This document shows positions 1,090-64,000 of a stretch of DNA of 64,000 nt, piece after piece. How positions within the stretch are numbered: the stretch's first letter is position 1; each line of letters begins with the position of its first letter. Location: NCBI GenBank assembly GCA_001724265.1, contig MEDY01000010.1, positions 62,001-126,000 of the forward strand, written 5' to 3'. The notes beneath the pieces are model-generated. The model was given only the letters and a program-made list of their open reading frames with translations. It did not search any database and was not told the DNA's origin. This stretch comes from Rhizaria sp. SCN 62-66 (lineage: Eukaryota). Both the position numbers and the translations under genes were made by a program.

Positions 1090-1527
1090 ATGAAACGTAC
1101 TCGAGCTTGCAGTGTAACACTTCATGTTTTTTACAAATTAAGATTGATTCGGGTAATTCCATTGAAATGATAGACTTTCATATGTACTTCTATGTTAACA
1201 CTTTTCACATTTAAATAATACATTTTTATTTTCATATCTCTTCATTTTGAACCACGGCTCATTTTTGCTATTTTTGTCGTAAGCATCAGGCCACAGGTCG
1301 TCAATAGGAAGCTAGAAGAGAGAGAGCCTTTCTGAAAGTGAGATTGCATCTAAAGTTTTGATTCTTGATTTACGACTCACAACATCCGTGACGTACAGTG
1401 TTGTTACGATACCCAGTGCATATTTAATCTACAATTTACAGATATATTATATACACTCGTAAATAACTCAATCATAACCGTGTACACCTTGATTACAATC
1501 CGACCCACGCAGATTTCCGTTCCGGTC

Positions 1528-29603: not shown

Positions 29604-30412
29604 GGTTGCTGCGTTCGTTGTGTTGACGGAACCGTGCGCAGAGCGGGGCGACTCAGGGAAAGAGCTATGCGTGAAGAATAAACGAGAAAACAACACAGGA
29701 AAAGATGTCGCGATGTAAGAGACTCGTGCAAGAACGATTAGAAAGCATGATGCGCTCTGGGAAAGGCGGTGAAACGAGAGACCTGGCTCCGAGTGGTCTA
29801 GGCATGGCTGGGAAAAGGACTAGAGTTACATGAAGTAGCACTTTACACAGATGGCAAAAACGGATATATATACCCTCGTCTGCTTTTTACCCTGACATGT
29901 TTTGCTTTTCATATTTGCTTAAGACGGGGACGCTCCCGAATCCAACTGCGCGCACGGAGCGACCGCAGTTAGGTCGGTTCGAATCGGTTCGCATTTCGCT
30001 CTGGACTTTTTGCGAACCGCAGCTGATGGTTTTTTTAGTCGGTCGACCGACAAACATTGAAAAGCTGCTCAGATACCGTCATCTTGGAACTCTAAAGAAA
30101 CAATACAGTACATTTTATATTTAAAATACCTTGTATTAATTTGCTAGATAGTCTATATCAGTGTTGTGGTCTTCTTCCCATCTCAGCGGCAATGCCACTT
30201 TGTGACGTGTCATTGAGGTTCCAACTGAGGTCGTTATAAAGATGCACACCCAGATATAAACAATTGGCCAGCACTCTTCGCAACATCGGAACGCGCATGT
30301 GAAAAGGTCAGACAAAGAACAATGAAGATGTGACGCACACGAAGATGAGAGCCTACAGCAGTTTCAACGCTTAGCACACACCATATAGACGATTGCTGCC
30401 ATCATGAAAATA

Positions 30413-33400: not shown

Positions 33401-34867
33401 TTGTGACTCTTTGAGAGTTATATCCCTGACAAACACCCCAGTGAAGCTTCCCAGTTTATATGTTAAGTGGTTAAACATGTTATCGCTTAGCTGAAACCCA
33501 ATAAATTCATCCGTGCCAAACGATGATGCCACAGTGATATCACTTTGCATCACACCATTCACCCAAAGAGCACTTACGATGCTCCCGTCGTAAAGCGTCA
33601 TCTTTCCTGGCCCATGAGGTTTCCCGGCCTCGTTCAGTGGCGCAACAATCGACCCCTTTTGCGCAACTGCAAGTTTGAGGCACTTTGACAAGAGCCAATA
33701 GTCTGTAATCGGAGGACCATCATTCCTCACCAGCGTTCCCAGTTTCCAGCGTGCCTCCGCCCAGCTGCCCGTGAATGACGTGCCCACCGATGGATAAACT
33801 GCGCGGCCAGAAGCGATGTCGATGTCGTCCCACCCGTCGCCCCACAGCGTGGCGCCGCAGCGCGACTCGAACACGCCGCGGCCGCGCGGGTACAAGCCGG
33901 CGCGGTCGAGCTGCCCTGTGTACACAGTGCGCAGGAGCCGTTGGCGCAGACACTTTAGGTCAACGCAGGTGCAGACTTCTACCTCGGCAATGTTGGTGCA
34001 AGACCGTGATAGGCTCTCGCGCGTGTACTTGCGGCACACAAACTGCAGGAGCGTCTCAAGAAATGCCACCGTCATCAAACGTGGAAAAAAACGTTTCTTC
34101 GATTTCGAGCGTGCTCGCTGGTAAATAGTAGCAGCCGCTTCTTCCAAGATGCAAGGTAAGACCGCGTCAAGATCTAGTTGCAGCCGGACGCCTTGCATAA
34201 CCTCATTTGGGTCCATTGCCGTCGCTCGAGTTTGCACAAACCGGTCACCTTTGCGCGGCGCCTCTCCGCGTAGCGCAAACGCGTCCGGCATTGCCACAAG
34301 TCCGCACGTCATGACAGATGTAAACCACTGCGTTGTGTCCAGTCTGTTCTGTGTCCAGCTCCCGCGAGTCGCGCGCTGCGCAGTCGTGTGCAGGAAGTCG
34401 CCCTCGCCATGGCGCAGTCCTCGCAGCCACTGGCCCCGGTACACCGAGCCGTCGCGGTAATGTACCTCACCGCGGCCGCGCACGTTGGCTTGCAGGGCGG
34501 GGTTAAGCGACGACGTAAGCATGCCCACTAGCGGTTCACCCGAGTCTATTCCCCAGTCGCCGATGAAGACGGCGCCGCCGGAGGTGTGTAGCTCCCCGCG
34601 CGCTGAGGGCACGTCGTCCTCCCAGAGGCAACTAAACCAGCTGCCGTCGGAGAAATGCGTGCTTCCGCGGCCGTGACGCTTGTCGTTGCGCCAGAAGCCG
34701 TCGTACTGAATGTACCCGGTCATACGCCGCAGTACACCATGACCATGACGGTGTCCAGTAGTCTCTTCGACTTCACCGGTGTACTGTAGACCAACTCCGA
34801 ACACGCGCTCATTGATAGGGATGTCCGTCACTTTGATGACTTGAATTTTAGCTTGATCTGTTGACAT
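30413..34867 (-). CDS. MORN-repeat protein with three repeat clusters, intronless, 1484 aa
   Basis: Single 4.4 kb ORF; repeats such as YDGFWRNDKRHGRG, YRGQWLRGLRHGEG, YEGRWEHGVRCGHG, YIGLFMRGRRHCFGRMRYANGD; TAA stop. Confidence 0.88.
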   Translation of the reverse strand: MSTDQAKIQVIKVTDIPINERVFGVGLQYTGEVEETTGHRHGHGVLRRMTGYIQYDGFWRNDKRHGRGSTHFSDGSWFSCLWEDDVPSARGELHTSGGAVFIGDWGIDSGEPLVGMLTSSLNPALQANVRGRGEVHYRDGSVYRGQWLRGLRHGEGDFLHTTAQRATRGSWTQNRLDTTQWFTSVMTCGLVAMPDAFALRGEAPRKGDRFVQTRATAMDPNEVMQGVRLQLDLDAVLPCILEEAAATIYQRARSKSKKRFFPRLMTVAFLETLLQFVCRKYTRESLSRSCTNIAEVEVCTCVDLKCLRQRLLRTVYTGQLDRAGLYPRGRGVFESRCGATLWGDGWDDIDIASGRAVYPSVGTSFTGSWAEARWKLGTLVRNDGPPITDYWLLSKCLKLAVAQKGSIVAPLNEAGKPHGPGKMTLYDGSIVSALWVNGVMQSDITVASSFGTDEFIGFQLSDNMFNHLTYKLGSFTGVFVRDITLKESQVSSGTFGARVSAGTTTWSDYKDNFHVTSERKTHTLKLGIEGAGSGSDSGDSLAKMRLSQDVRSITLVQTIRKEFPSVTLGSSDITNDWQQQVEDMRAGSSSNQLMVKKAQYNDSTKCMVKNHLLYEKHPSKSSCLPSLLSRESETFKCNLVNSNVDANDKLNLEISIVDCYTVISKDTRPDQVLTTLMYNGNLIKGVFFDVASDQQLSFMPHPEQLRLHLAHGPVFVADLQAAPSGQNVFKRGTAPLIGVMTFPNGGSETRRLLCEVPDCTTIMPFNDTDVMTTHHGWRLTVKRELMYRSTSCRCTPAAHMKDYNACSLVDAVTPNGTTFRGSYRKAADWMWASPSELVGRFTLSNGVTMDYDSVHIDQKAPFEGVRCTVTVPGRSNPMLGCWRGDTFVSTDATGAELLSADDGQYVGERNEAGERHGHGKCVYVTGAVYEGRWEHGVRCGHGTYTNFTGDATFTGEFQADRVHGNVTLTRVNGTTLVGIWNTGEFVSGVYTDIMKNVNRVKPHPLAPSSLFGSDDATIVLVDEQLHASIYKGSMIDGVPNFQGKLTVFADVDAICKGARPLSSKKMAQAQSREIATYEGCFVRGQFTGIGSITHRQAQYRLLKKCIPLPIVSVKLSQERLYTGSANFTDFNHIEFTGEGRLEQQVRNGPVQHYELLCQGKWRSDKASDIWGHKKICNGILGVTVASTNVKSADIEIVGKLITANSKRTIAYMKDKVYEGFLLANEHPFGCGTQSTKDESMLLRRGTTCKGELMGLGEEQDELNGDHYIGLFMRGRRHCFGRMRYANGDVHSGWWVTGAPGGLGALATERGVLYIGYWSGPVPFGDGTVIDFANRTYSYGPQWKDAAQQALADRAHERRWGHRRGLAPGKATWVGARDKCNRPYGKGVMTRPDGVVCRGMNISGTWKGACSMIYPDGTTYVVNYGDSGVISAAVPTVGVAMTQEEDTAEHREALARVSGTLREVQFLTKDNDDETSSDAFYQPLF

Positions 34868-35719
34868 GATATCCGAGCCGTTAGAGTGGGTAATTTCAGA
34901 TGGAAAGGCACAACCGGATGCTTTTTTCGCCGCGTCAAGCTGCGACTTGTGTTTTGAGGTTCCTTAGCTGCTCTTGTGTGCTGGCTTTGTCGACGTCAAA
35001 ACTGCTTAAGGAAGCAAACCAATATACAAATATATTATTGAGCATACAACCAATCCGAGATGGAGTGAGCATTGCTGATGGGTGTCATGTACTTCTCATT
35101 TAGGAACACTCGTTTTGTGTTCGTGACCACTGACCTAAGCCATGACCAGTGATCTTGAGACATGCATGTACAATGAATTCATCAAAGAGTCAAATAGATA
35201 ATACATATTTGAGTGAAAGGCATCACCATACGTTTTGGCATCGCCCGACTAATACCAACAATGTGACGCATTTCCTGGCCACAAAGCAGCATCGTTTACT
35301 GGGTGCTGTGTGGAGAAGGATTTGGAGTCAAATTTCTGACAGTGACTTCGCTAAGAAGGTTAATAATACAAACACAATTGTACAAAAAAGAGAAGTCCAT
35401 TGTTACTTTGTTTGACGATCGGATTCTCACACAATAGCCCTCAGTCGAAATCGGCCCCAAGTGGAAGAGGACAAAAACTGCTTCAGATTGGATCGCTGTC
35501 GATTCACCAGTTCAAATATTGAACATCTGTCCTGCCTTGTCTTCAACGCTATTTCAAATGCAGTTGACATATATATGACATTTTTATTACGATTATTTGT
35601 ATGTTTTATGGGAGACAATTCAATGACTTCTTCATTGCGCCTAACATGTTTTCCTTTCATTCTTTTGAACACAACGGTTACCCTGTCCGTTCATTGCGTC
35701 TCTCCACTGACAGCGCCCG

Positions 35720-46832: not shown

Positions 46833-47684
46833 TTAACGAGAAGCATTGTAGTTGTTCCCGTCATAATGCCTATCGCGCTCAGAGCGATCACGGCTCGCCC
46901 CATTGGTATGGCTGTTGCCACTGCCACTGCGGCTGTTGTGATGACGCTGCTGCTGCGTTCCCCAATGAGTCTGAGCCTGACCCTGAGCCTGGCCCTGCGC
47001 CTGTGCCTGCGCCTGCGGTTGAGGTTGCTGTTGCTGTCGCTGCTGCGCTTGTGACTGCTGTTGGCCCCTCACGTTCCCACTGACAGAAACCACATTCACG
47101 CTCGCATTCCCCTCGGAGCGCTCGCCAAACACAATCGCCTCGGCCTGCGGCACGAATCGGCGCACCGGCGGCGCACCTCCCCCGCCCCCGTCTATAGTGA
47201 GTGCACCCGCACCAGCAGCCCCCGCCGCGCCAGTCACCCCGTCGCCCGCAGCGGCCGTCCCCGCGGTAACTGAGCCTGTGCGCGCGGAGGGCGGCGCGCG
47301 CTGGTGGCGCCGGTTCTTGTTCTGCGCGGCCGCGATGGCGCGGAGCTGCGCGTTCACGGCGTCGCCGACGCGGATATTCTTCGGGATGTGGACGTAGCGC
47401 ACGTGCCGGTTGCGCACCGTGTAGAGCGCGTAGTTGCGCGGCGGGGAGATGGCGTCCCAACCGCCCATGCGCGAGACGCGTGCGTTTTTGAGCGTGATGA
47501 CCCAGTCGTTTGTGGCGTTGGCGAGTAGACCGACGACCTCGTAGTCGCTCGTGAGCTCGACGCATATCTGCTTGTCATAAAGCGCGCGAAGAATGAAGCC
47601 CATAAGGTTGTCGCCGGGATGGGGCGGCACGCGGGGGGCAGTTGAGGCCGCGGATGACGCGCTGGGGGAGGACTGTGCGGACAT
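46833..47684 (-). CDS. LSM10: Sm-like protein, LSM10-like (U7 snRNP-specific), with Gln/Gly-rich tail, 283 aa
   Basis: NLMGFILRALYDKQICVEL..VVGLLANA..ITLKNA (Sm1) and YTVRNRHVRYVHIP..V.DAVNAQL (Sm2); VRYVHIP followed by a helix ending QL is the pattern I recall for Lsm10 rather than SmD1/SmD3/Lsm2/Lsm4; TAA stop. Confidence 0.72.
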   Translation of the reverse strand: MSAQSSPSASSAASTAPRVPPHPGDNLMGFILRALYDKQICVELTSDYEVVGLLANATNDWVITLKNARVSRMGGWDAISPPRNYALYTVRNRHVRYVHIPKNIRVGDAVNAQLRAIAAAQNKNRRHQRAPPSARTGSVTAGTAAAGDGVTGAAGAAGAGALTIDGGGGGAPPVRRFVPQAEAIVFGERSEGNASVNVVSVSGNVRGQQQSQAQQRQQQQPQPQAQAQAQGQAQGQAQTHWGTQQQRHHNSRSGSGNSHTNGASRDRSERDRHYDGNNYNASR

Positions 47685-48247
47685 GGGGTGGAGCGAAATC
47701 TGTTGTCACGAAAGCTCAACGAGAAAGTTGATTAGTTCTCCTCAATGGTCTATGCGTTAAGTATAATTAGAGATATACATATTTTATGAGGGTTCTCAAT
47801 TCATATTGCTGCCACACATCTGTTAACGGAAATATGAGAGCACGGCATGATGTTTAAGCTTGGTTCATCCTAATTTGACTAGTGTTTGAGAGCAAGACAG
47901 AGTTCGTAGATATGATGCTTATACTTGCACATATATCATCACACAAAACACGAACACAGTTGAAACACGTTTATACAGCGCATTAACCTAACGTAACGCT
48001 ATTTAATGTTGTTTGTCGCCATCAATTCCAGCTCTCGAACTGAGCACCGGGTTTAGAGTCATTCGCCACAATGGTAAGAAGTGCTATTTAGTACATGTAC
48101 TACAGAAAACCAGTGCAAAGGAGAGTAAAGTGTAATTGTATTATACAAAAAATACATATCAGGGCTATTTAATTCAAGGTTAATCAAAGATGCATTACTT
48201 AAACAGCATTAATAGTGCTGATACACGTTATCGCGATACTCGGAGAG

Positions 48248-51200
48248 TTACATCTTGGGTGCCTGGCTCATCAGAATGCGGCTCGACTTGGCCAGCAGGT
48301 CCCTCCCCACGCACACGGGGCACGCCATCGGCAGTGTCACCCCGCTTGACTGCACCGCCGCGAGCACTTGCGCGAGCAGCGTGGCCTGCACGTGTTCCAG
48401 CCCCGGCACCGCGGCCCTGACCAGCTCCGGCATGGCGGCGACCGGGGTCGCGTGGCCGCACGAGAAGGCGCACAGCACGTGCTCTGGCGTGGCAGCCAGC
48501 TCGGCGCAGATCAGTTCAAACGGGGCGAGGCCGGCGTCGGAGCCCAAGCGGGCAGGGCGGGCGGTCGCGCCCTCACTGGCACCGGCGGCCGCTACGGCGG
48601 TGGGTTGCGCTGCCAGGGCCGAAGCGACGGAAGCAGGGAACTGGGTGAACACGGTCGCCAGCGGGATGACAAGGGGGACCGGAGGCGTCGTGACGTCGTC
48701 ATCGTCGTTCACGCCGTTGCCGATGTTCGAATGTCGGCTGTTCTTGTTGCCGGTCATCGGTGAGCTAGCAGAGTGCGTGTGCGCAAAGAAAGGCTCAAAG
48801 ACTGCAGTGGCTTCTGACGCTGAGTGAGACACGATCGAGAGCACGCGCTGCCACAACTGAGGGTCCATCACAGTGCTCGTCTTGCCGCGACTGCTGGAGC
48901 TCGCCGCCAGTGAGCTCTCCGCCAGACTAGCACTCAACACCGCGTCCGCGTTGCTGGCTGAACTCACGGCAGCAGACTCGGCGCTCACGGAGTCAGCGTG
49001 CACGGCGAGTGCGGCCAGCGCGTTGACAGCAGTATCCGCGCCAGCAGCAGTTTCGCGGCGACGGCTCTGTTGCTGCGGATTGCGGTTGTTGCGACGCCGC
49101 TGGAGCAAGCTAAGAGTCGTAGTCGCGGCAACCGTCGCGTTCTCCGCAGTCGCCTGGCTGCCGTCGCAAGACTGCGGCCGCAGCGCCGCCTGGGCATCAG
49201 CAAGCTGGGTGAGCGTGAGCGCGTGCGCCTCGGGCGTCAGCGCCAGCGCGGCCGCCGCGGCAACGGCGACGCGCGGCGACAGCAGCAGCGGCAGCGCGAG
49301 CGGGTGCGCGGCGGGCGCCGCGCCCGAGCCCGGAGCGGCGGGGTGCGTGAGTGGCGCCTCAGCGAGCACTGCGGCGACGGCGGCCGCGGGGGGCAGGCCC
49401 GCCGTGTAGGGCGAGGACATGAGCAGGGAAGCGAGCGCGGGGCCAGCGGTGTCGACACCGGAGGCGGCAGCGGAGGCATTGCTCGCGTTCACGGTCGGCC
49501 CAGTCGCGGTTGCAAGAGTAGCGGGCGTGAGAAGCACCTGCTGCACGACCGACACTAGGGGCGGCAACGGGACTGCGAGCGTGTTGCGTGCGTGACCACA
49601 AACATGGCTAACGAGGCTCACGTCACGGAGAGAGGCCGTGAGCACACTGGCGTTGTCGGGAGCACACGCAAACATACTTGTTGTATCTGTGCTGGCGTCT
49701 GCAGTACTAGTGTTGACAACGAGAGGGGCGTGCAAGAACACGCCTGCCAGCACTGCGCCAACAGGGGCGACGGCAGCGGTCCAGCGGCTAGTCTTATTGC
49801 CGTTACAACTGGCAGTCATGACGGGCACGGGAAGACCAGGGCAGATACACTCAGTGAGGTACGCCTCGAGAGGCTGCAACGGCCATTGTGACAGGAGTGT
49901 CAGCACAGAAGTCGCAGCTTTAACGCCAGCGTGGCTGTTGATGCTGTTCGGAAGCTGCGACCAGGTTTGCGCCACGATGGGAGCCGCAGTTGCAGCCCAT
50001 GTAGAAGCAGCAGAAGTGACTGTGATTGCAGCTGCAGCAACAGTCGTCAAGCAACGGTTCACGGCAGCAGCCTCGAAAGCACTGAACGTCGAAGCAGACA
50101 GGTTGTGGCAAGAGGAGCTGTTCTGCGTGTGACCCGAGGCAGAAATGCAGACACGACAATCGGCAGGAGACACACACTTACTCGCGTTACAGGTGGCAGT
50201 GAGTCTAAGTAATGTCTCATGCAGCACAGGCAGCGCACGAGACCAGAACGCAGTCAGCATCAGCGCACGCACAGCTCCAATAAAGCCGTCGGAGACGCTC
50301 GACCCATCCGCGGTTGTGCTGAAGACTGTGACAGCACCAGAACCGAGCTGCGACACATGAGTAACGAGCGAACGGCCCGACTGAGAGCAGAGCAGCTGCA
50401 GCAAGCCCTTGCCAGACGACATACTAGACCGCGCAGAGGCTCCAGAGAAGGGCACGGCCAGCGGCGTCCAAGCAGCCATCATTTGCAGGGTCTGAGTTAG
50501 GCTTGAGTGCAAGAAGAGTTCAGCGGTCGGCACAGACAGCTGCAACGGCAGCGAAACGGTCGTCAGACTGGCAGAAGCGGCAGTGCTGCTGCTCGTGGAC
50601 ATTCCCGCGCTGTGGGTGGTGCTCTTCAACACCAAACGGTTGTTGGCGCTGCTGCTCGTAGTTGTGGCTGTAATTGAGTTTGCAGTTGTAACAGATGTGA
50701 AATGTTGGGCAGTTTCTGCGATCAGGGTCGGAGTAATCAGCAACCACTGAACAACCGTCGTCGCACCGGTGTCATTGCACGCACTCGCAAGCGCAGTCGG
50801 CCGGTAGGCTCCGTGGAGCGACAACATCGATGACACGCACAACGGCAAGAGCGAGGAACGGGTCTCGCTCAAGTCGTGCCACATACTAGGCATACTCTCT
50901 GACAGCGCGTAAACGACGTTAGGCTTGCTCACGCCATCACCAGCCTCATCATTGCCGTCATCGTTGTTGTCATCGTTGACGAGAGCAGAGTTCACGCGTG
51001 CAGAGAGAACACTGAAGTACTCGTCAGCCTCCTTGACCCGCTGCATGATTTTCTCGGTCCTGCTCGCCTCGTCCATCGCCGTCAGCCGCACCAACGCGTT
51101 GAGGTACGTCTCGACGACGGCGCGCACTAGCTTGCGCAGAGACGCCGGCACCTGCTGCGGCGGCTGGCCGCGGGCCGCGGCGGCCGAGGCGGCGGCGGCC

Positions 51201-54200
51201 GTCGTGCTGGCGAGCACGGACGCGGGGATGTGCGAGGCCCAGATCGAGCCGGACTTGCGGAAGCGCGCGACCATCACCGGCGTCACCACACCACGGGGCG
51301 CGGTGACACTCGCGCTCGCGTCCTGCTGAGTCGCGTGTGTACTGGGGATTAATGGAGTCGCTGCTTGGGGTGCGTTGCAGTCATACACAGAACAGTCAGT
51401 CGAAAGGAAGAGACTGTGAGCGCGTCCCTTAGCCTCTGCACTCAGCGCAATCGCGCTCACATTCACCACGTCAATCGCCGCAGCAGCAGACTTACCTGCG
51501 TCACGCCCACTGTAGCTCCCCGCGTTATTATTGGCGTTCGTAGCCAGCGGCGACTGCGAAAGCACCAACACGCCGCGCCTAAGCGCGAGGCGTCCGGCCG
51601 CGTTGGCGCCGGGGCCGCCGCCGACCGCGGCACTCGCCGACGGGGGCAGGCCGTCGGCGTGCGCGAGCGCGGCGGCGACCGCGGGGGCCACGGGGTAGCC
51701 CGGATCGAGCAGCTCGCATAGACGTTGCAGCCCGGCGCGCGGCAGCGTCGGTAGCAGTGAGGCGAGCAGGGAAATGTAGCCCGCGATGTTGTAGTGACTA
51801 GAGGCGGCGGCGGCGGCGGCGAGGGCGGCGGCCGGGGCGCACGCGAGAAGGGCCAGCGCGCGCGTGGCTGGAGGCAGCGCGGGCGCAGAGTGGGGCGGCG
51901 GCAGCGCGAGGGCCAGAGCAGCCGCGACACGGGGACTCAGGCGGCGCTTAACAGTGTGCTTACTTGCGGAAAGACGCTGTTTGTCACTGTCGATGTCAAT
52001 CATGATGTTCTTCGCATTACTCATGTGAGCATCAACGTCGCAGATGTTGTTGATCGTGCCGTTCGCATCTTCGTTGTTGTCGTCGTTCTTGGCAACAACC
52101 TCCGAGTCGACGACCGAGACGACGGACGACACAGTGCCCAACCTGGGGGACAATTGCTGCTCGCAGTCGCTCGCATTGGTGTCACGATCACTATCACTAT
52201 CGCCAGCCTGCGACGACAGCGCGGCCAGCGACACGCGTGACGCGCTGTGTCGCATGATCTCGCCGAGGCCCTCGCCCAGCTGGCTCAAATCGAAGTTGGG
52301 CACGGTGCCGACCGAGCCCAGCATCACGGGGCTGCGCACCGCCCTGTTGTACGCGCCCTGGCTGTGGCCGTGGCTCGGCGACGCGGCCGACGCAGAGCCC
52401 GACAGCGCGGGGGATCGGTTGCTCTCGAGCGGCGGCAGCGCGATGCCCGCGGCGGCCAGCGCAGCAGCCACGGCAGCCGCAGCCGGGTGCGGGGCGCGGC
52501 GCAGGAGTTTGTGATTGTACGGAGTGCCACCGGTCTCAGCGGCAGTAATGGAGCCGCTGTTAGCGTTAGCAGCGGCAGCGGCAGTAGCGGAAACGGCGCG
52601 AGGACGAGCGCTCCCGCTGATGCTGTTGATGGTGGTGGCAACGGCGCGCAGCGGTGTTGCGGTATCAATCCCGCTATTCGCAACAAAGTGAGGCGACCGG
52701 CTCGAATACACCGGCGTGAGAGAACTGCGACGACGATGACTGTGGTTGTGGGCGTAGTTGACTGCAATATCGCTGCCATCACCACTGCGGCGAGGCAAGG
52801 GCAAGGGCACGAGAGCGAACCCGTCATCGCCAGTGGCAGGGCTAGCGTTGCCAAGCTTGCTTGGGTCGAAGTCATCGGGAAGCGTCCCGACCACAGGGGC
52901 TCCCGGTGCAATGCCGCTCGCACTACTGAACACGACAGCGCTGCCGTCTCCAGTCGTGTTCAAGTGTTCCTCCGCGTTGCTGTACAGAGAGATGTCGTCA
53001 AAGACTCTCACAGTGACGCCGCTGTTGCTGCTGGCATTGCAAGCAGCAGTGCCGACAGGCGTAGCAACGCTCACAGAGGCAGCGATGGCTGCGATGTCGC
53101 GACTCACCAGCAGTTGCACACGCTTGCTCAGCGCACCAAGGCCAACTCGAGTGTCGCCTTCGTGCCGAGCTCGCGGGCGAACTGCAGCAGCAGCGCGCGC
53201 GACAATGGGCTCAGGCAGCGTCGTCACATGCGCCGAGAGCAGTGCGTACGCATAGCCGAGCCCCGTCACGGCCATGTCTTGCGGCGGCGCGTGCCGCAGC
53301 GCCGCGGTCAGCGCCTCGCGAGCCGCAGGGCCTTCTCCAGGCGGCGCGCGCGGCGGGGGCGGCCCCGCGGACGCGGAGGCAGAGGCGGCGAGAGTGAAGT
53401 ACAGGTCGCAATCGTCGGAGGACAGGGGATCGTTGGAATATGCGTCAAGATCTTCGGGGTGTTGACTGTGGTAGGGATCGTTTAAAGGGAGTGCCAAGCC
53501 GAGAAGAACAGCTAACTCGTTCACATGGGACTTAGACGTGGGCTTTGAGCGAGCGTATTTCGGCAGCGACTTGGTGTAAACTGTGAGGGCATTCGTATCG
53601 CTAACGCTACCGCAGCTCGTGTTTGCCGCAGCCGTCATGGCAGCATCAGAGCTTTCGCTCTCCGAGTCAGACTCAGATCCAGAGTGACTGCCGCTGTCGG
53701 CGTCACAGTCTGAGTCAGAGCTGACGCCGGTGATATGAGTGTGGCGCAGCCAGGGCGCGTTGATGGGGAAATCTTCGCCTGCAATGCGCGCGCTGACATC
53801 CCGGAGTCCGCCCTTCGTCGCCGCGCGGGTGGGGGACTTCGCGGCTGCAAGAGTGTTGTTGTGGAAGTTGCTGTTGTGGCGGGACACGAGCACGTATTCT
53901 CCGTCATTGCCATCCAAGTCCGAGTCACTGCCACCGACATTGTTGCCATCGTCGTCGCCGCCCTCCTCTTCTTCCTCTTCTTCGGCCAGCACAGCGACGG
54001 CGAGAGCTTCGCGTTCGACGCGCGCCAGAGCCATCAGGTTCAGACGCATCATGACGAGCTCAAGCGTGGCAGTGACGCCACCCGCCGCCATCAGGACTGC
54101 GCCAACGTCGGTGCTCAGGAGGTCCTTCTCGCGGCTCTGGGATGCGAGGCCGACACTCGCAGCAGACAGGGCAGCGCTCCACGCGCTATGACTACTATTG

Positions 54201-55929
54201 GCACTAGAAGTTGTCGTTGAGAATGCGGCTGCTGTCAGTGTGAGCAGCAGTGGCGTTGCGCGACGATCGCGCGCGAATGACAGAGCCAAGGACATTCCTG
54301 GGCCAGCAGCAGTGGCAGTGGTCGAGCCCGAGGTGGCGGCAGCCGCCGCAGCGGCGGCCGCGACGGCAATCACACTCCTGGACGCGGACTTGTTCGCATC
54401 GACAGCAGGAATCAGCGACCGCGCGTGCGAGGCCACAGCGCCTGCTGCGGCGTTCACGCTCGCGGGCTGCGACGCGAAGGCCGTAAGCGAGTGCAGCATC
54501 AGCAGCGTATGCGACACAGGGAGGGCGCGGCGGCGAGTCAAGACTGCGGCGGGCAGCATGCGGGCGCAGAGGGAGTCGAGAGCGACGGTCTCGTCCACGC
54601 TCACACCGGCGCCAGCGCCGCTGACTTCATTCACGCTCGCAGTAGCGTTTGCGGCTTTGTCAGTGCCAGAGTGCGAGGTAGCATTCGTATTCTTCGCGTT
54701 CAGAAGCAAGCGCAGCCATTGCCCGACGCCGGAGCCTGCGTCAGCAACGACAACACTTGCGGCCGCCCTGCCGTTGCGCCGACTCGCACTCGCAGCGTTC
54801 GCGGCTGCGGCGGCCTTGACACTGGCGTTGGCGTCGGAGCCAGTGTACAGAGCAGTCGCGGCGCCGCCGGTGCGGGCAAGCCATGCGACCGCCGCGGCAG
54901 TCTCGCTCTCGGCCGACTCCGCGGCGGCGTTGAGCAGCCCGCTCTGCTGCATGGCGAGGCGGCGTGCAGAGTCGGCGGCCTGCAGAGCGTGGCTGTGGGC
55001 GGCGAGCTCAGCCTGAGATGCGAGACCGAGATCGGTGACGAGCGGGGAAGCAGCAACGTCCCAGACCGTCCACTCGTGTACTGCCTCCACGTCGACAGCG
55101 GCGCCACTGTCAGCACTCTTCGTGATTGCAGACACGGACTCAATAACGGCGTTCTTGAGCGACATAAGCGCATCCTCAGCTTCCGTAGCCGCAGCTTCGG
55201 CCGCCGCGGCCACAGCTTCCTGCTCGGCGGCCTCAGCGCTAGCAAGCACCAGCGCACGCAGTTGCGTGAGCGCGTACAGAGTCACAAGCGTCGCCGTCAC
55301 AGTCGCCTCAGAAGAGACGATTGCGGGGACGACGGCGCCTGATGCGACTGCGGCGGCGCCGGCAGCAGTGTCGAGCGTGGCAGCCAGTGCAGCGGCATCA
55401 ACACCGGCAAAGACCGATGACGGCGGGAAGGACAGCGCGCGGGGAGCGACGGACGCGGCCGCGAACGAGCGCAGCGCGTGTGATGGCCGGCGCCACGCAG
55501 CGACAGCGTTAGTGCCCATCGAGCCCGAAGCACTGCGACGAGAACGAGACTGCTGCTGTCGGAGTTGAGCACTGGAAGGTGCATACGAATCCCACAGCGT
55601 TGCCAGAGTCGCCTCGGTCGTGAAGGCAGAGGCAGATGCGGAGTGGCTTGCACGCAGCGCCGCAGCAGCTGCGGCAGCAACAGCAGCGGGACCAGCGGCC
55701 GCAGAAACAGCTAGGGCGTTGGAAGCTGTGGAAGCTGCCGTGGTTGCGTTGGTAGGCAGCGGCGGGTAGCCCAACGTGACCGAGCAAACGAGCGAAGACA
55801 CATCGGGCCAGATCGTCGTCGTGGCAGCAGCAGCACTAGTGTTTGCAGTGACAGAGTCGCTACTCACGACTGGCGTCAAGACAGTTGCTGGCTGTTCGAT
55901 GCTTGCGTGTGCGGTGTCGCTGCGATCAC

Positions 55930-55960
<31 letters not shown>

Positions 55961-58900
55961 GAACGGAAGCACCACAGGCAAGAACGGCGAAGCGGCAATC
56001 ATGCGGTGCGGCACTGTCACCGCTGCGCTAGCGCTAGGAGTGCTTCCGTCCCGCGACGGCGTGCCGCGGCGGCCACGCCTGTTCGCCGGCGTGCTGGCGT
56101 TAAGCCCGAGAGCCGGAGAGGCCAGCCGACTCACCGCGGAGCTGGCGCGGCGCGCACTGATGGCCGCACCGGGGGACGCGGCGCCGCCGTCGGCAGAGAG
56201 CAGGAGCGCGGCAGATGACGCGGCCGGCGCGAGGCCATGCGGGGCGGCCCAGGACAGCGCGGCGACGCGGTCCTCCGCCTCCTCCTCGTCCACGGCGGAC
56301 GCAGAGACATTTGCACTGGCGCCGACGAGAGAGAGAGTGTGGCTGTCAGAGTGCGAGAGAGACGAAGTCGCGTTTGCAGCAATGCGAGCAGGAGAGAGAG
56401 AGAATGGGTCAATGCTTGCAGCCGCACCGTCAAAGACGTCTTCGTCCTCGTCAGCAGCATCGTCTTCCTCCGTGTTCGCGTCGGCATCGTCGCCACTGTT
56501 GTTGGCATCACTAGCGTCGCTTGCTGTGAGTTCGGCGCTGCCTGGCTCACGCGGCGTGGCGGAAGCCGTCATGATATTCGGGTCAGCAAACTGCATTGGC
56601 GACGGGGACGGTGAGGGAGTCGACGACTGCGGCTGCACACCAGCTGATGCAGGGACGGGATCAACAGGCGCACTAGCACCAACAACAGCGACTGCAGTGA
56701 GCGAGTGCAAGTGCGCAGCAGCAGTCTCTTGCAGGTACAGCGTCAGCGCAGCGCAGCCGGAGCCGCCCTGGACTCTGCCGCGCTGCTGCTGCTGCTGATG
56801 CTGCGACTGTGGTAGTCTGCGGCCGTAGGCGGATCTACTGGGCGTCCCGTGAGCGCTGCCGCCCGCACTGGCACCACCGCGACCGCTCGAGTTCGAGCTC
56901 GAGCTGGAGGGCGAAGCGAGACCAGCCGCTGCAGTCAGACTAGGCACAAGGGCGGTGATGAGCGTTGTCACAAGGCCGTGAAGCTCAAAGGCAGCCGCGG
57001 ACAGGGCGGCGGCCGCTGCCGCAGTGACTGGGGAAGACGGCGCTGCCGCGGCAGCCACTGCGGCGGCGGTGTCGGTCGCGGCGGCGGCGGCAGCGATGAC
57101 AGCGAGCATAGGCAGAGGGTCGGAGGCAATGGAACAGCAGTGGGCGAGCGACAGAGCGCGGGCAAACAGGGGGCGCATTGACGGACGCGAGGGCAGCACG
57201 GTCGCTGCGGGCGCCGCCGATGCAGACGAGTTGTTGTGGACGACCGCGACAGTGTCCGCAGTGTACGATGCCACAGCAGCAGCAGCGTGCGCGAGTGCGT
57301 GGAGGCCCTCTGCAGCAAAAGATGCGTCAACGTCCATGTCACTGATGCTTGCCAGCGGTGAGAGTAGGAGACGAGAAGCGGTGTCAGTGGAGACCCCGCT
57401 CTCTGCAATCGCCACAGCCTCATCAAACGGACTGGGCCCCGTTGAGAGCGACGCAGAGTGCGGGAACACGGCCCAGAGAGGAGCGACGGCCGCAATGTAC
57501 CGCGAAAGCGCCTGAGCAGGGCTGGACGGAAGCGCAGAATCGGCACGCTCCGAGGGGGGACTGAGACGCAAGCAGCGGAGTCGAGTGAGTGCCCAGACCG
57601 CAGTGCGGCGCAGGCTGAGCGCGACGGCAGACGTGGGTAAAACTGCGCTCGAGTTCCCGGCACCACTGGTACCCGCAGCAGCGCTGATAGCCGCGGCACT
57701 CTGAGTAACGTTCGGCGGGACCACCGCGGCCACGGACGAGAGGGCAGCCGCGGCGATAAACTGGGTCACGAGCCTGTCCCAGCGCAGGCGCAGCAGCGTG
57801 CGCAGCAGCGGCAGGCGGATCACACTCGGGGTGAGTGGAGACACCGGCTTCACGAACGCCGAAGTTGCATCGTTGTGCACATCAAGGGCGCGAGCGTTAC
57901 TCAAAGCAGACCCACTCGTAGAGGTGGCAGCGACAGCGGCGGCTGCCTCGGCCGAAGCCAGCGGCAGCCAGCGCGAGGCGGTGTCCCACTTGACGTTGTA
58001 GAGTCCGGTCGCCGTCCAGAGCAGCACGCCCGATGCGCCGGCGGCAGCGCTGTCCCAGCCGTCCTGTGCGTTGGCAGCCGACGACGCGTGGCGCACGGCG
58101 GACGACGACGGCGCCAGGAACGCCGCCGCCGAGGCGACCGCAGCGGCCGCCGCGCCGGCGCCAGCGCCGCGGGCGCCGGTGACGTAGGGCGACCGCGCGT
58201 CGCACACGCCCGTGGCGGTGGCGCCGAAAACGCGGCCGGGCACCGTGATCACCTGCAGCGCGGGGGTAGTCAGCGCGGGCGGGCTCAGGGCGGCGCGCGC
58301 TGCGGCGGCGGCGACGGAAGACGGCATGGAGTCGAATGATGCGGCAGCGGTGAGGGCTACGGTGGCCGCAGATCTAGTGGCTGCAGCAGTCGATGTGGCC
58401 GTTGAGTGGTCGTCTAAAGCATTCGCAGCGGCGACCGCGGCGGCTGCAGCTGCCGCAGCGGCAGCGCTATCAGAGGAGCTGGAGCCAAATGCACTGTTGA
58501 TCGTGTTGGCGGCCGAAGTGGCGACGTCCTCGAACGACTCCCCGACCGCGCCGCCCTGCAGCGAGCGCCGCGCGGCCAGCCCGGAAACGACGAAGATGGT
58601 GCTTTCCGTGCGGGACGGGGCAATCACGAGAAGGTACGGGTCCGCTGCGATGACAAACCGGCCGGGCGGCAACAACACCTGTGTGAGCACAGGGGGAAGC
58701 GGGAGCAGTGGGTTTGCGAGGAAAGCGTGCGCGCCCGCGGCGTTGGCGTTGCGGCGGCTACCAGGGGTGCGACGCGTAGATGCGGGCGCAGGTAAGAGAC
58801 CAGCAATGGCAGCGGCGAGTGCGGGGGTGGCATCGGCGGCGGCGGAGGCGGCATGCGAGCGCCGCAGCTGTGCGACGTCGGACGGCAGCGAGAGGAGCCG

Positions 58901-61900
58901 GCCGGAGCGAGGGCAGAAGAGCAGGAGGAAAGACGTTGACCCCATCACGATTGGTAGAGGAATCACGTCGTTCACTGTCACCGGAACAGCGAGCGGAGAA
59001 GAAGATAGCAGAACTGTCGGTTGAGATTGCGCAGCCGCTGCGCTAGAGCTAGGGGCACTGTTATTCTTGACTGGAGTCGAGTAGATAGACGAATGCCTCG
59101 TGTGGCCAGGCGAGCTTAAGCCGCCGCTTTGCGAAGGCACAAGCGGGAAAGTCAGGCCGCCGGGCATCGGCGCAGCAAGCGTAGTCACGGAGGGCGTCCA
59201 TACGTGACTCCCTGGCATGCCAGTAGTGGCCTGACTTTCAACGACAACAAGATTCACGCCTGAAGCAATGATGGTACCTGAGTCGGTCGCGTCGTACACG
59301 TCGTTGTCGCCGTTGTAATAAGCTGGAGGGCAATGAATAACCGGTGCAGGCGCAGAGGTGACAGCGCGCGCAGCTGTCAGCAGCAACGCGGGCTCAAACG
59401 CGCACTGCTCGATGCTCTCAGTCGCAGGCACCAGCGCGACAGAGCTCGAGTTGAAGCTACTGTTGGCCGGGCAAAGCCAGTGCGGCCTGCTAAGCAAGGA
59501 AGAGCGGACGGCGACGGCAGTGGGCTCCGACACTGAGCGCAGCACGTTTGCGGCCAGGGGCCAGTACAGTGGGCCTGCAGCTGTGTTCAAGGCACCAGTG
59601 GTTGCGTTAACCGCGGCATCAGAGCTGCTGCCTGATCCGTTACTCCCGGTGCCCGCAGCCGACGCGGCAGCCACCGCGGCGGCGTCCGCAGCGGTCGCGT
59701 ACGGCGAGAACACGACGGCGGCGTTGCTCGTTTCGGCAGACAGCAGACCGCGCTTGCCGATGCCGACGACGGCGTCGACGACGCCGCCCACGGTCACCTC
59801 CTCCGTGCTTTGGTATTGCGCGCGCGGAGAACGCAGACCGCTCGCACCGCCACTAGAGGCGGCGGCCGCGGCAGCAGCTGCGGCTGAGGCAGCAGCGGAT
59901 GCAGCGGCGGCCACAGCGGCGGCAGCCGCGGCGGTCGGCGACGTGAGTGCGGGGGCAGCAGCAGGTGCAGGTTTCGGCTTCGAGGAGAATACGGAGGCAA
60001 AGAAGCCCTGCTTCACCGGAGCAGCGCTCGCCGCGGTGCTCGCGGTCGGCATGGAGCCCCCCGATGCGGCGGCCGCTGCGGCGGCAGCGACGGCGGCGGC
60101 CGCTGCGACCCGGGTGGACACGCGCGCGACGGCGGCGGGGAACGGGCTCGCCTCGTCGGGCAGCAGGTCGAGCACGTCGGCGTATGCGCACGGCAGCGAC
60201 GCGCGGAGGCCCTGCGCCAGCACGCCGAGCGTGGGCTGGGCCCACAGGTAGTGCTGCAGCGTGAGCAGGAAGGCGGCCGAGACAGCGGCGGACGGCGTGT
60301 CGGGCGGCAGCGCGCGCAGCATCGTCGTGGCGGTGACGGGCACCGTCGCGGGGAGCGCGGGCTGACTGGAGCTGCTGGCGGAGCTGCAAGCACTTGTGGT
60401 CGAGTCAGAACTTGCGCAAGTCCCAGTGCCAGAGCAGCGGGAGCAGGAGGAGATAACAGGCAGGCCGCCGAGGTCAGTGATCGTTTGCACGACAACCCAC
60501 GGCAGTCCGCCGACATTAGCACCAGGGCTCGCAGACGCTGCAGGAGAGAGAATGCAAGCGCAGATGCTGCGGGGTGCAGTGCCCGTCGGAACGGGCAGCA
60601 CAACCGCGGCGTACGCTTGCGCCGGCCACGGGGCGCCGACGGTCGCATTTGCGCTGGCAGTCGAGCTATTCGCGTTGGAGAGAGCAGCGGGGAGAAGAGT
60701 CGCTGTGAGTGCGCCGGCACTCGCTGCGAGCACCAGAGAAAAGGCAGCAGCGGAGGCCGAAAGAGCCTGTGACAGACCGGTTGCGGCCAGAGAGGCGGCA
60801 CGTGTGGAGGCAATGCGGCCAGGGGTGACTGGCAAAGCAACAGCAGCAGCGGCCGAGGAAGATGCGACATCAGCCGAGTTCTCAGTCTTGGTTCCGCTCA
60901 AAACAACAGCACGTCCGCTGGCAGCTGGGCTGGCGTTACGACCGTCAGTGTTGCTCTTGCTTGCGCGCTTCTGGGCCGTCAACTGAGCCTGTGTGTGGGC
61001 ATTCGCGGTCGCCGCAGGGTAGCCAGCGGAGACGATCGCGGCGCGCACCGACGGCAACAGGCCGGAGGCGGGCGGGACGGCGACTCCGAGAGCGGCGGCG
61101 ACGGTGAGCACGGTCTCCGGGTACAGAGCTGCGTGGTAGGCCAGCGGGTGGGACGCGTAGTCACTGGGGAATGCGATCGGCGCAAGAGCGAATGTAGGCA
61201 ATGCGGAGCAATCAAAGGCTGCGTGCTGAGAGCCAAAGGTGTTGGTAGTTGCGTGAACATCGTTGCCGTAAAGCCGCGGCAACATGGGGATGAAGGGAAA
61301 CGAACGAGGAACCGGCAGTGCCAGCGCCGGGGGCGGGTGGCCGGAGCGAGCCTTCATGACCCAGCGCGAGAGTGCCTGTGAAGACTTGAGCAGAGACACC
61401 GAGTCGGACAACACTAAGCTCGTACTGTTCGTTGTTTTGCTGTGCTTGCTCTTGATCATCTTGCCCTTGCGCTTTGCGTTGCTGTTGTTCCAGAAAGTAA
61501 GCCCAGTTGTGGCGAGAGAGAGAGGCGACGGAGCCAGCGCAAGACTGGAGCCAGGCGGACCAACCAAGAGTGCAACGCTCTCGCCGCGACTGTGTACATC
61601 AGTGCGACGACCCGTGGCAGCGCTGGAGTGGCTCTTGCCGCTGAACGCAGCCGCAGCGCGCGTAAGATCGGTGATTGAGGTGGCCGCGGTGATGGTGACG
61701 TGCGTCAGCGGCACAAGCGCGGCCGGCAGCGGCAGCGGCGTGCTCACGCTCGGCGTTTCACCCTTGAGGTTGATGCTCACGCGCGTGTACGTCAGCGACA
61801 CGGACGCCTGCTCGATCACCGACAGCGCGAGCGCGGATGCGTTGCCAGCGACGGCGGCGGCCGCGGCGGCGGCAGCGGCGTCGAGCGCAGAGCCCGAGTC

Positions 61901-63671
61901 AGCGGCCAGCGCCGCGGCGGCGGCAGCGGTGGCGGCGACGCTGGCGGCGGCGGCGGCGGGCGACAGCGCGATGGCGGGCAGCACGGGCTGGGCGCAAGGT
62001 GCGAGGACGACGGTGCTGCCGCTGAGGGAGCCGGTGCCGGGGCCGAACGAGCCGCCGGCGCCGCCAGATGCGGCCGCGGCAGTGGCGGCGGCTGCAGCAG
62101 CGGCGGCGGCAGCGGAAGGATCGGCGCCCGCGGAGACTGCGGTGACAGCGCCGACTGCAACGGCGGCGGCAGCGGCAGCTGCAGCAGCAGGCGTGCTCGT
62201 GGTCAGCGATGATGACGACGGCAAAGACCCAGACGAGGTAGAGGTTGACAGTGTAGAGCCGGACGCCGAAGTTGCAGCGCCAGTGGCAGCTGCCACCGCA
62301 GCAGCGGTGGCGGCAGCAGCGGCAGACTGGCTGTTGGAAGCACCGAGCACGAGGCCGGTGCTCGCAATGGCGGCGACAACTGTGGAGCCAAGCGTCGCTG
62401 AGGACGGCGCAGTGGACGCAGAGCGCTGGAAGTTAAGCCGCACAGCCGCAGAGTCCGTAAGAGTACCGAAGACGCGCGCGAAGCCAGTCGCCGAGGCAGC
62501 GTCGCTCTGTGACTGGGAAGAGCTAGAGCCAGCGGCCGTGGACGGGGGCAGCAGAGAGCGCGCGCGGGCGGCAGCGGCGGCCGGGACAGGCGGCAGCGGC
62601 GACTGCGAGAGCGCGTGCATCGGCAGCGTGAGGTCGCCCGTCCACGGCAGCTGTAAGGGGTACGCGTGGTCTAAGTACCCCGCCGCACCGGCGCTGACGG
62701 AAGAGCCCAGACTCGAGCTCAGGCCCATGGCGGAGATGAGAGTGTGCGTCATGTGCTCGTGGCCAGCCTTGGTCAGCATCGCCAGCGCGCGCGCCCACGT
62801 CTGCTGCCGCACGCTGTTGACGCCCCAGCTCGCCGCCACGGCCGCAGACACCATCTTCTTCTCTAACTGCAGCACCAGCGTGCGGCCGCCGTCCGCGGAT
62901 AGCAGCAACGACTGCGACTGCGCGCGCGCCGCCTGCCGCCGCACGCACAACAGACACGAGAGGTCGGCGGCGGGCGCGCGCCGCGGCGACGCCAGCGCCA
63001 GCAGCTGTGGCGGCGGCGGCGACGGCAGCGCGGGTGCGACGGCGCGCGCAATCGCGGCGGCTGCGAGCGCAGGCACGAGCACGGGCGCTGTGGTGGCGAG
63101 CAAAGCAGGCAGAGTCAGGGGCCAGGCGTCGTCGCCGCCGCTCACGGTCACTACAGCGATGCCGGTGGTCACCGTCTCCGGGGCGCGCTCGTCACGGGGG
63201 TCTTGCTGTGGCGTTTGCTCAGACTCGGCATCGTCATCATCATACTCTGCGACGTAAGTGATCACGGGATGCTGATGCACATCCCTGGACGAGACACCGA
63301 TGTGAGTCGATTGCTGTGTGAGCGCCATTGGCATCGCGCCCGCGCCAGCGGCCCACTTCTCAAGCACGTCGCGGTGCCTGCTGCCGAGCGCGCCCGCGAG
63401 CGTCAGCGCGGCGGCAGCCAGGCCGAGCTCCACAACGCCGGAAACGACCGCGCCGCGCGCCGCGCTAGCAGACGCGGCGCCTGTATTAGCGGTGGCTGCG
63501 CCAGTGGACGACGACTGGTTGCGCGCGTGCGCATGGCACAGCGCCTGCGCCTGCGCCTGCGCCTGCGTGTGCGCGTGCGCCGTCGCCGCCGCGCACTCTG
63601 CGCAGACCGATGGGGCGGTGTCCTCGACCAGCAGAGCGAGGGAGCGCGCGACAAACGCCGACGCCGCGCCC

Positions 63672-63711
<40 letters not shown>

Positions 63712-64000
63712 GGGCCGTGGCGGCGGCGCCGAGTCCCGGCTGCGGCAGCGGAACAGCGGCGGGCGCGGCGGGCAGGTGCAGCCAGCGCGGGATGACCGAG
63801 GGGCCGTGCGCCGCGGTGTGCGAGGATGCCGACGAGAGCGAGGGCGCGGCGCGGACGGCGCGCTGCATGGCCCAGACCGAGGTCGAAAGCCACGCGCCCA
63901 GCTCCGAGAGCGACGCGCGCGGCACGCGGGGGCTCGCGGCGACCGTGCAGCCGGAATCCTCGGCGCTCGTCTCGTTGTCGCTGTCTGCAGCGTGCTCGTC
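48248..64000 (-). CDS. Giant Ala/Ser-rich protein (>5,250 codons, 5'-truncated) with one in-frame TAG at 55951-55949 and a C-terminal CxH..CxxC motif
   Basis: Frame is open from 64000; ORFs 55949..63925 and 48248..55879 are in the same frame, separated only by TAG plus 23 sense codons; no intron or AT-rich spacer at the junction; ends AFSCGH...ACPVC...QAPKM-TAA. Confidence 0.75.
55931..55960 (-). repeat. (CAG)3-TAG-(CAG)6 interrupted trinucleotide repeat
   Basis: + strand reads (CTG)6 CTA (CTG)3. Confidence 0.97.
63674..63709 (-). repeat. (CAG)12 polyQ microsatellite
   Basis: Perfect (CTG)12 on the + strand. Confidence 0.95.

Follow-up and report, generated by a model that had tools for sequence, protein, structure and literature searches.

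UAG as a probable rare sense codon, with glutamate as its most likely reading, in the nuclear genome of a probable rhizarian

The codons UAG and UAA are nearly always reassigned as a pair, and only a handful of nuclear exceptions are described in the reports cited here. The rhizarian exLh (UAG = Leu) and Iotanema spirale (UAG = Gln) are UAG-only nuclear reassignments (PMC5304391). Phyllopharyngean ciliates read UAG as leucine or glutamine, Protocruzia as glutamine and Scotinosphaera as serine, and in the UAG = Leu ciliates the suppressor tRNA(CUA) is derived from the tRNA of the encoded residue (PMC11687900). With UAA kept as stop, the described meanings are thus Leu, Gln and Ser, while Glu is described only where UAA has also been reassigned. 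The ciliate PL0344 combines UAG = Glu with UAA = Lys (PMC10553269), and in peritrichs and Blastocrithidia both UAR codons encode Glu (PMC11687900, PMC12153298). Glu-like CUA tRNAs accompany UAG = Glu in PL0344 and Blastocrithidia (PMC10553269, PMC12153298), and those of PL0344 are 69-93% identical to tRNA-Glu (PMC10553269). A search of the open literature returned no nuclear code that reads UAG as Glu and keeps UAA as a stop.

Here, an independent UAG-only case is described, in a genome that shows the gene for the suppressor tRNA together with the parent tRNA and eRF1. The window, i.e. the whole stretch of 64,000 nucleotides that was analysed, contains the tract (CAG)3 TAG (CAG)6 on the minus strand at 55960-55931, flanked by TTC and CGT GAT, with the TAG at 55951-55949. 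A sequence-only reading had pointed to this lone in-frame TAG in a polyQ tract, which joins two huge open reading frames, and the site was seen as described. The giant frame around it counts 6,375 codons in total (172 Gln and 164 Glu codons among them), and the TAG, codon 3809, is its sole TAG. Upstream, 2,683 open codons lie inside the window and the gene starts outside it, at G000:C10:129375. Downstream, the frame had been estimated to stay open for about 2,560 codons to the TAA at 48248; 2,566 were counted, ending at TAA 48250-48248. The first Met of this part had been placed about 120 residues in, but actually follows 144 codons after the TAG, at 55519. The features of the window are as follows.

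55949..55951, minus strand: in-frame TAG, codon 3809, probable sense codon (Glu most likely, Gln next); from frame analysis, with the base taken from the contig-end test
55931..55960, minus strand: (CAG)3 TAG (CAG)6 low-complexity tract; from reading of the sequence
55952..64000, minus strand: upstream part of the gene, continuing past the window to the ATG at G000:C10:129375; beta-propellers as weak leads, no match in Pfam
48248..55948, minus strand: remainder of this gene downstream of the TAG, 2,566 codons as far as the TAA; first Met at 55519, no Pfam match
48310..48480, minus strand: C-terminal Cys/His cluster, no more than a RING-like lead (Atlas RING families, 0.80-0.81)
1369-3243: NAPRTase, ordinary window gene
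19596-21374: kelch protein, ordinary window gene
21765-29819: RRP5, ordinary window gene
30413-34963: MORN-repeat protein, ordinary window gene
46833-47705: LSM-domain protein, ordinary window gene

The five ordinary genes all end in TAA or TGA. An AT-rich intron at the TAG junction can be dismissed, since every 60-nt window of the giant gene within the window has at least 43% GC and no GTACG or GTATG was found between 55600 and 57000. This agrees with the earlier observation that the junction lacks an AT-rich spacer and a GTACG donor, and the TAG was rejected as splice-site letters. Elsewhere in the window, the long minus-strand frames 17411-13581 and 13580-9123 abut at a same-frame TGA. That TGA lies inside an AT-rich 129-nt stretch (13620-13492) that runs from GTACGT to AG, which identifies it as part of an in-frame intron and not as readthrough. 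The 30-mer of the window tract occurs at 14 places in the genome and is in the Gln frame in 5 of these 14, with locus L050 counted among the polyQ-frame TAGs by its upstream frame, as its downstream frame runs across an N gap. The window TAG would most simply have been born by a C-to-T change of CAG.

Whether the TAG is a real base had been raised as a serious question, with a base-call error or a C-to-T nonsense allele as alternatives. In the read comparison the repeat at 55921-55966 was masked, and base support there comes from contig ends instead of read letters. Other loci share parts of the repeat, so that a k=31 graph must break at places set by the middle codon. The contig breaks were simulated in such a graph with TAG, CAG or CAA as middle codon, on the assumption that run contigs break like plain unitigs. 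With TAG as middle codon the predicted overhangs were 36 and 38 letters long, with CAG they were 32 and 34, and CAA produced no break. The observed overhangs were 36 in both run X1 and run X3, and 38 in X1. X1 is a possible source of the assembly; X3 belongs to a different study and is identical to the assembly across the listed pieces. The contig ends at 55951 in two studies thus match TAG and not CAG: the window TAG is a real base. A sequencing error or nonsense allele is contradicted both by these ends and by the genome-wide TAG pattern described below. Strain run X4 carries five differences in the downstream part (three synonymous, two not), too few for a selection test, and among the contigs listed for RNA run X6 none covers the window TAG. 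On four public contigs the downstream half of the giant gene has been called as a separate protein.

For the genome-wide stop-context test, about 0.76 Mb was used, consisting of stretches that had not been chosen for a TAG, with overlaps de-duplicated and the window included, and all stop-type codons at the close of a confident coding frame were taken. Coding continues after 12 of the 14 TAG codons (11 of 13 when the window site is left out) compared to 1 of the 121 TAA and TGA codons (Fisher p 2.5e-14). Split by codon, it continues after 0/70 TAA and 1/51 TGA. The sequence-only reading had allowed for a change of UAG alone with UAA kept, and this holds up in the difference between TAG and TAA and in the finding of a cognate tRNA. 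At gene ends TAG is strongly depleted: among the 122 ends after which coding does not continue, only two are TAG (in L076 near 9613, plus strand, and in L123, minus strand), and these are candidate UAG terminators or intron positions. An earlier count (open frames after 46/51 TAG, 33/83 TGA and 24/81 TAA) was set aside for its inclusion of antisense frames. Overall, UAG is very probably a rare sense codon across this genome, with UAA and UGA as the stops.

The same codon stands out inside conserved domains. A scan for protein kinases gave 142 matches, in which a lone TAG was seen nine times, a lone TAA once, a lone TGA never and a mixture four times; five of the nine lone TAGs are exonic and four are intron acceptors. 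The exonic TAG sites in conserved domains come to eight, a small number: eRF1, the five kinases, a ubiquitin domain and MLH1, where the in-frame TAG lies near the gene start. Other TAGs, in kinesin, DEAD-box, myosin and EF-hand genes, in the four kinase matches and in three dynein genes, were dropped as intron acceptors. Fragments of the ubiquitin-domain and kinase genes on other public contigs stop at the same TAG. The ubiquitin domain belongs to a repeat-built protein fused to it (L103, G000:C681), which has two in-frame TAGs and is found in a second assembly as a 1,150-residue form that stops at the same TAG. The ubiquitin loci examined (L101-L108, L205, L206) are unusually divergent, start with MSMQIF and include no head-to-tail polyubiquitin.

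Could the standard code still apply? The TAGs would then be nonsense alleles, lesions of pseudogenes or errors of assembly, and the tRNA with the CUA anticodon would itself be a pseudogene. The window site was masked in the read comparison, and many TAGs do lie in low-complexity regions or in lineage-specific paralogue families. A lineage-specific expanded kinase family (L086-L088, L209-L228) carries far more in-frame TAGs than conserved genes do. (Some members of this family appear, by eye, to have Sel1-like C-termini.) However, lesions would not be confined to TAG, and the kinase matches show five exonic TAGs against no lone TGA and one lone TAA. TAG is almost absent at gene ends, the TAGs recur in separate assemblies and the contig ends match TAG exactly. 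Moreover, the sole eRF1 that was found would be truncated in its first domain. The standard code is therefore held to be very improbable. Programmed readthrough specific to the giant gene, yielding isoforms of 3,808 and 6,375 residues, is just as improbable. The base directly after the window TAG is C, as such a reading would have it. On the other side, TAG does not serve as a regular stop in this genome and has a cognate tRNA; the repeat around the site is mutable, and a search for homologues that could show conservation of the site found none. Since gene ends in TAG are so rare in this genome, there is no need to invoke the short and long isoforms that had been proposed, while some residual termination is possible.

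As a sense codon UAG is very rare. It accounts for 33 of 144,484 codons (about 0.02%, with some wrong frames possible), compared to 112 for ATA. Family scans for TAG gave 0/20 ABC, 0/22 AAA, 0/149 WD40, 0/13 DHC_N2 and 0/10 cyclase matches. Five dynein frames are full-length (4,554-5,164 codons) and free of stops, and three interrupted dyneins contain no exonic TAG. The low usage and the avoidance in most conserved genes suggest that UAG is decoded slowly or with some competition from eRF1.

A tRNA with a CUA anticodon was looked for, and a single gene was found at G000:C84:76008-76080 (ARAGORN call). It scores 58 bits with the Rfam tRNA model (cut-off 29), is followed by a T-run and is present in a single copy on a contig that holds GC-rich genes like the rest of the genome. 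When compared to 25 tRNA types, it is most similar to Glu(CTC), with 47/73 positions identical (64%), whereas the Gln tRNAs reach 36 and 32. In the acceptor and T stems it matches Glu(CTC) at 21/24 and Glu(TTC) at 18/24 positions, Lys at 15-16/24 and Gln at 7-8/24. It also has the U1-A72 pair and the purine 73 of the organism's Glu tRNAs. Judged by these stems, the tRNA(CUA) evidently descends from the organism's own tRNA-Glu. Further features are U11-A24, U13-G22, A37 and the lack of base 47, which are among the E. coli Glu determinants; C36, a strong Glu determinant, is missing (PMC9976931). Several of the D-stem and variable-loop features are also present in the organism's Gln(CTG) tRNA and hence do not discriminate between Glu and Gln. 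ARAGORN labels the gene as Pyl, and a pyrrolysine tRNA was rejected on the basis of U1-A72 (not G1-C72) and the Glu-type stems (PMC9976931). No tRNA with a UUA anticodon was seen among those examined. At L015 2709-2793, ARAGORN left a tRNA as Thr or Tyr, which is probably an intron-bearing tRNA-Tyr.

Under the proposed mechanism, the nuclear code would be a variant one, with UAA and UGA for termination and UAG as a rare sense codon. UAG would be read by the single-copy tRNA(CUA), which, being derived from tRNA-Glu and having kept a Glu-type acceptor stem, would most likely insert glutamate. At the window site, the ribosome would then read QQQ-E-QQQQQQ and produce one protein of 6,375 residues. 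Both the charging with Glu and the translation through the window site are predicted from sequence. As an overall explanation, UAG = Glu through a tRNA-Glu-derived tRNA(CUA) with UAA and UGA as stops is given about an even chance.

The eRF1 gene itself carries an in-frame TAG in domain 1 (L057 1594-1596, i.e. G000:C63:103463-103465) and ends in TAA. The TAG is identical in a separate assembly (L229), and the fragment after it has been called on four public contigs. The second PF03463 locus looks like a gene of the pelota type, which leaves the TAG-bearing gene as the sole eRF1 found. In 237 homologues the TAG column holds E 220 times, D 16 times and V once, and Q in none. The sole V belongs to the closest relative, which is 84% identical; sequence searches found no closer eRF1. 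The host eRF1 keeps E55, L69, S70 and the YxCxxxF motif, and it shows the substitutions T32S (0/204 homologues), G57S (0/237) and T58K (1/237, again the closest relative). The 84% relative thus shares T58K and keeps T32 and G57. These substitutions suggest that the host eRF1 may recognize UAG more weakly. Together with an 87% NAPRTase, the 84% eRF1 comes from one or more relatives (P0004 and P0122) that may be a sister lineage able to date the code change.

Which residue UAG encodes was approached through the eight domain sites, all of which tolerate polar residues and which give a mixed picture. Summed over profile HMMs, E is ahead of Q by 2.6 bits, of K by 4.4, of S by 10.2, of Y by 17.0 and of L by 19.8. 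Leu, Tyr and Ser were rejected by these margins of 10-20 bits, and Lys, at 4.4 bits behind Glu, was set aside mainly on its tRNA stems (15-16/24). With the tRNA weighed most, Glu is taken as the residue at about even confidence.

The sequence-only reading had favoured glutamine. Its claim that UAG is decoded stands, while the Gln identity is opposed by the sole CUA tRNA being Glu-type and by the Glu column in eRF1; glutamine (NCBI table 15) stays a live rival, possible though somewhat less probable than glutamate. It would follow if the Glu-derived tRNA(CUA) had been switched to GlnRS, or if a Gln-type suppressor were missing from the assembly. None of the eight sites is a strictly conserved Gln site, and Q is found at variable ones. 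It is present at the aligned site in NEK1, the solved kinase closest to L082, in MutL at the MLH1 site (L126, where human MLH1 has R) and in the organism's own ubiquitin at the L103 site. Among the best-matching paralogues, Q occupies the TAG site in four pairs, T in two, and E, A, K and S in one each. At the kinase hinge TAG of L222, S is the residue in the closest solved kinases (KSR), and the column is therefore not strictly Glu; in RAF kinases the site holds Gln. Further in favour of Gln, 19% of the neighbours of the 26 high-confidence exonic TAGs are Gln (a set that includes three polyQ sites from a pattern search), and five of the 14 repeat loci have the TAG in a polyQ frame. The E-over-Q margin of 2.6 bits is small and the closest eRF1 relative has V at the TAG site. 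Amber suppressors in E. coli are often charged with Gln (PMC9976931), and UAR reassignment most often ends in Gln (PMC11687900). The tRNA(CUA), at 64% identity to tRNA-Glu, also falls below the 69-93% of PL0344 (PMC10553269) and is without C36.

Against glutamine, searches for a CUA tRNA of Gln type came back empty: tRNA-Gln(CUG) as a DNA query returned 5/5 identical CUG copies, and among 20 matches to an intron-less CUA tRNA pattern, which intron-bearing or unassembled genes would escape, the one CUA tRNA was the Glu-type one. The eRF1 site has Q in 0/237 homologues. In CAG runs, TAG is as rare an interruption (1) as those that change the residue (GAG 7, CCG 9) and far rarer than the synonymous CAA (36). 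The Gln contexts themselves are expected at unconstrained sites under either residue, because CAG-to-TAG is a transition. A test on acidic runs (14 matches: 12 CAG and 2 TAG) was given little weight, since one of its TAGs proved to be a poly-Ser frame on the other strand; the other TAG lies within an acidic run at L319. In that test CAG frames were taken unchecked, and CAG and TAG are both one step from GAG.

A mixed decoding may also be considered, in which the Glu-type suppressor, a near-cognate tRNA-Gln(CUG) and a partly active eRF1 would compete, giving a mixture of Glu and Gln with some termination. TAG would then persist only where either residue and some truncation are tolerated. The acceptance of polar residues at all eight domain sites would fit such an ambiguous intermediate, as would the low TAG usage (rarer than ATA), the dyneins without exonic TAG and the two of 14 TAGs after which coding does not continue. 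T32S alone should not abolish UAG recognition: it leaves human eRF1 largely unaffected in vitro (PMC3632111). A C follows the TAG at 13 of the 26 high-confidence exonic sites, against a background of 25%, but this excess is also predicted by CAG contexts, where C follows in 45%. In addition, eRF1 and MLH1 carry their TAG early, so that decoding must be efficient enough for essential proteins. Competing readings of this kind are considered quite unlikely, and glutamate is kept as the preferred residue.

The position of a UAG inside eRF1, a codon that other conserved genes avoid, suggests a feedback. With more eRF1, its own synthesis would be cut short, and release activity would be held at a level where UAG reads as sense. 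That the UAG acts as such a sensor could be, as judged from one gene, and chance is possible. The combined picture of UAG alone = Glu in a rhizarian, with one suppressor, at a low-usage stage of reassignment and with this feedback holding release activity low enough, is considered rather unlikely. Release-factor autoregulation is known in bacterial RF2, where a frameshift takes place at an internal UGA. Plant eRF1 is reported to be controlled by a readthrough/NMD loop (PMC5397192). Like in these loops, translation of the release-factor mRNA would hinge on competition at a stop-type codon. In contrast, the candidate here is an in-frame UAG in domain 1 of eRF1 that would be read by a suppressor tRNA, and the 84% relative has Val at this site.

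The 6,375-residue protein has no Pfam match and no PDB match and found only itself among 1.84 billion representatives. Upstream of the TAG, weak Atlas leads point to beta-propellers of the Nup133/ELYS/HPS3 type (scores 0.78-0.82). The RING families at 48310..48480 (minus strand) score 0.80-0.81, below the reliable range, and gave no PDB sequence match. Such a layout, with a beta-propeller upstream and a C-terminal RING, would, if right, resemble that of membrane-tethering scaffolds and fit one protein spanning the TAG.

The assembly of the host, an uncultured protist, counts 34.9 Mb and is eukaryotic with AT-rich introns, and the runs that hold the host are mostly wastewater and bioreactor metagenomes. 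The best named matches of the window NAPRTase include several rhizarians. In a quick NAPRTase tree, for which 58 of the 120 matches were used, a branch with support 99 separates the host and all five named rhizarians from animals, oomycetes, Balamuthia and bacteria. By this one-gene tree, the host is probably a rhizarian, and its dynein heavy chains, with at least 11 loci, hint at a flagellate. The 18S rRNA gene at L080 1501-5945 (G000:C706) is very divergent and has four matches to group I introns. Inside it, at 2062-2637, lies a 191-codon frame with a Cys/His pattern reminiscent of a His-Cys box homing endonuclease.

Annotation with the standard code splits genes in this lineage, eRF1 included, and the split products are already present in public protein collections. 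With a rare codon and an eRF1 that possibly still sees UAG, the organism is a candidate natural intermediate for tests of codon capture versus the ambiguous intermediate. If the residue is Glu, the code would require a new table.

Compared to exLh and Iotanema, the same organization is found: UAG appears to be sense, UAA and UGA are stops, a CUA tRNA is predicted there as well, and the host here is probably a rhizarian too. Thr32 of eRF1 is changed in Iotanema (T32G; PMC5304391) as it is here (T32S). The present eRF1 differs, however, in combining T32S, G57S and T58K with a retained L69, the codon is very rare, and it is located inside eRF1 itself. Unlike in exLh, Leu can be discarded as the residue (by 19.8 bits), and the tRNA is of Glu type. 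The phyllopharyngeans, Protocruzia and Scotinosphaera share the UAG-only reassignment with UAA as stop, but none of these listed cases is Glu, and the contigs here are long and GC-rich. The Gln-derived tRNA(CUA) of the UAG = Gln code (table 15; Iotanema, Hartmannula, Trochilia) was not found here, as the one CUA tRNA detected matches the Gln stems at only 7-8/24 positions. In its tRNA the case resembles PL0344, the peritrichs and Blastocrithidia, where the tRNA(CUA) is likewise most similar to tRNA-Glu. The avoidance of TAG in conserved genes also recalls Blastocrithidia, in which the reassigned codons are avoided in highly expressed genes. In all three of these systems, however, UAA has been reassigned as well, whereas here coding continues after none of the 70 TAA codons.
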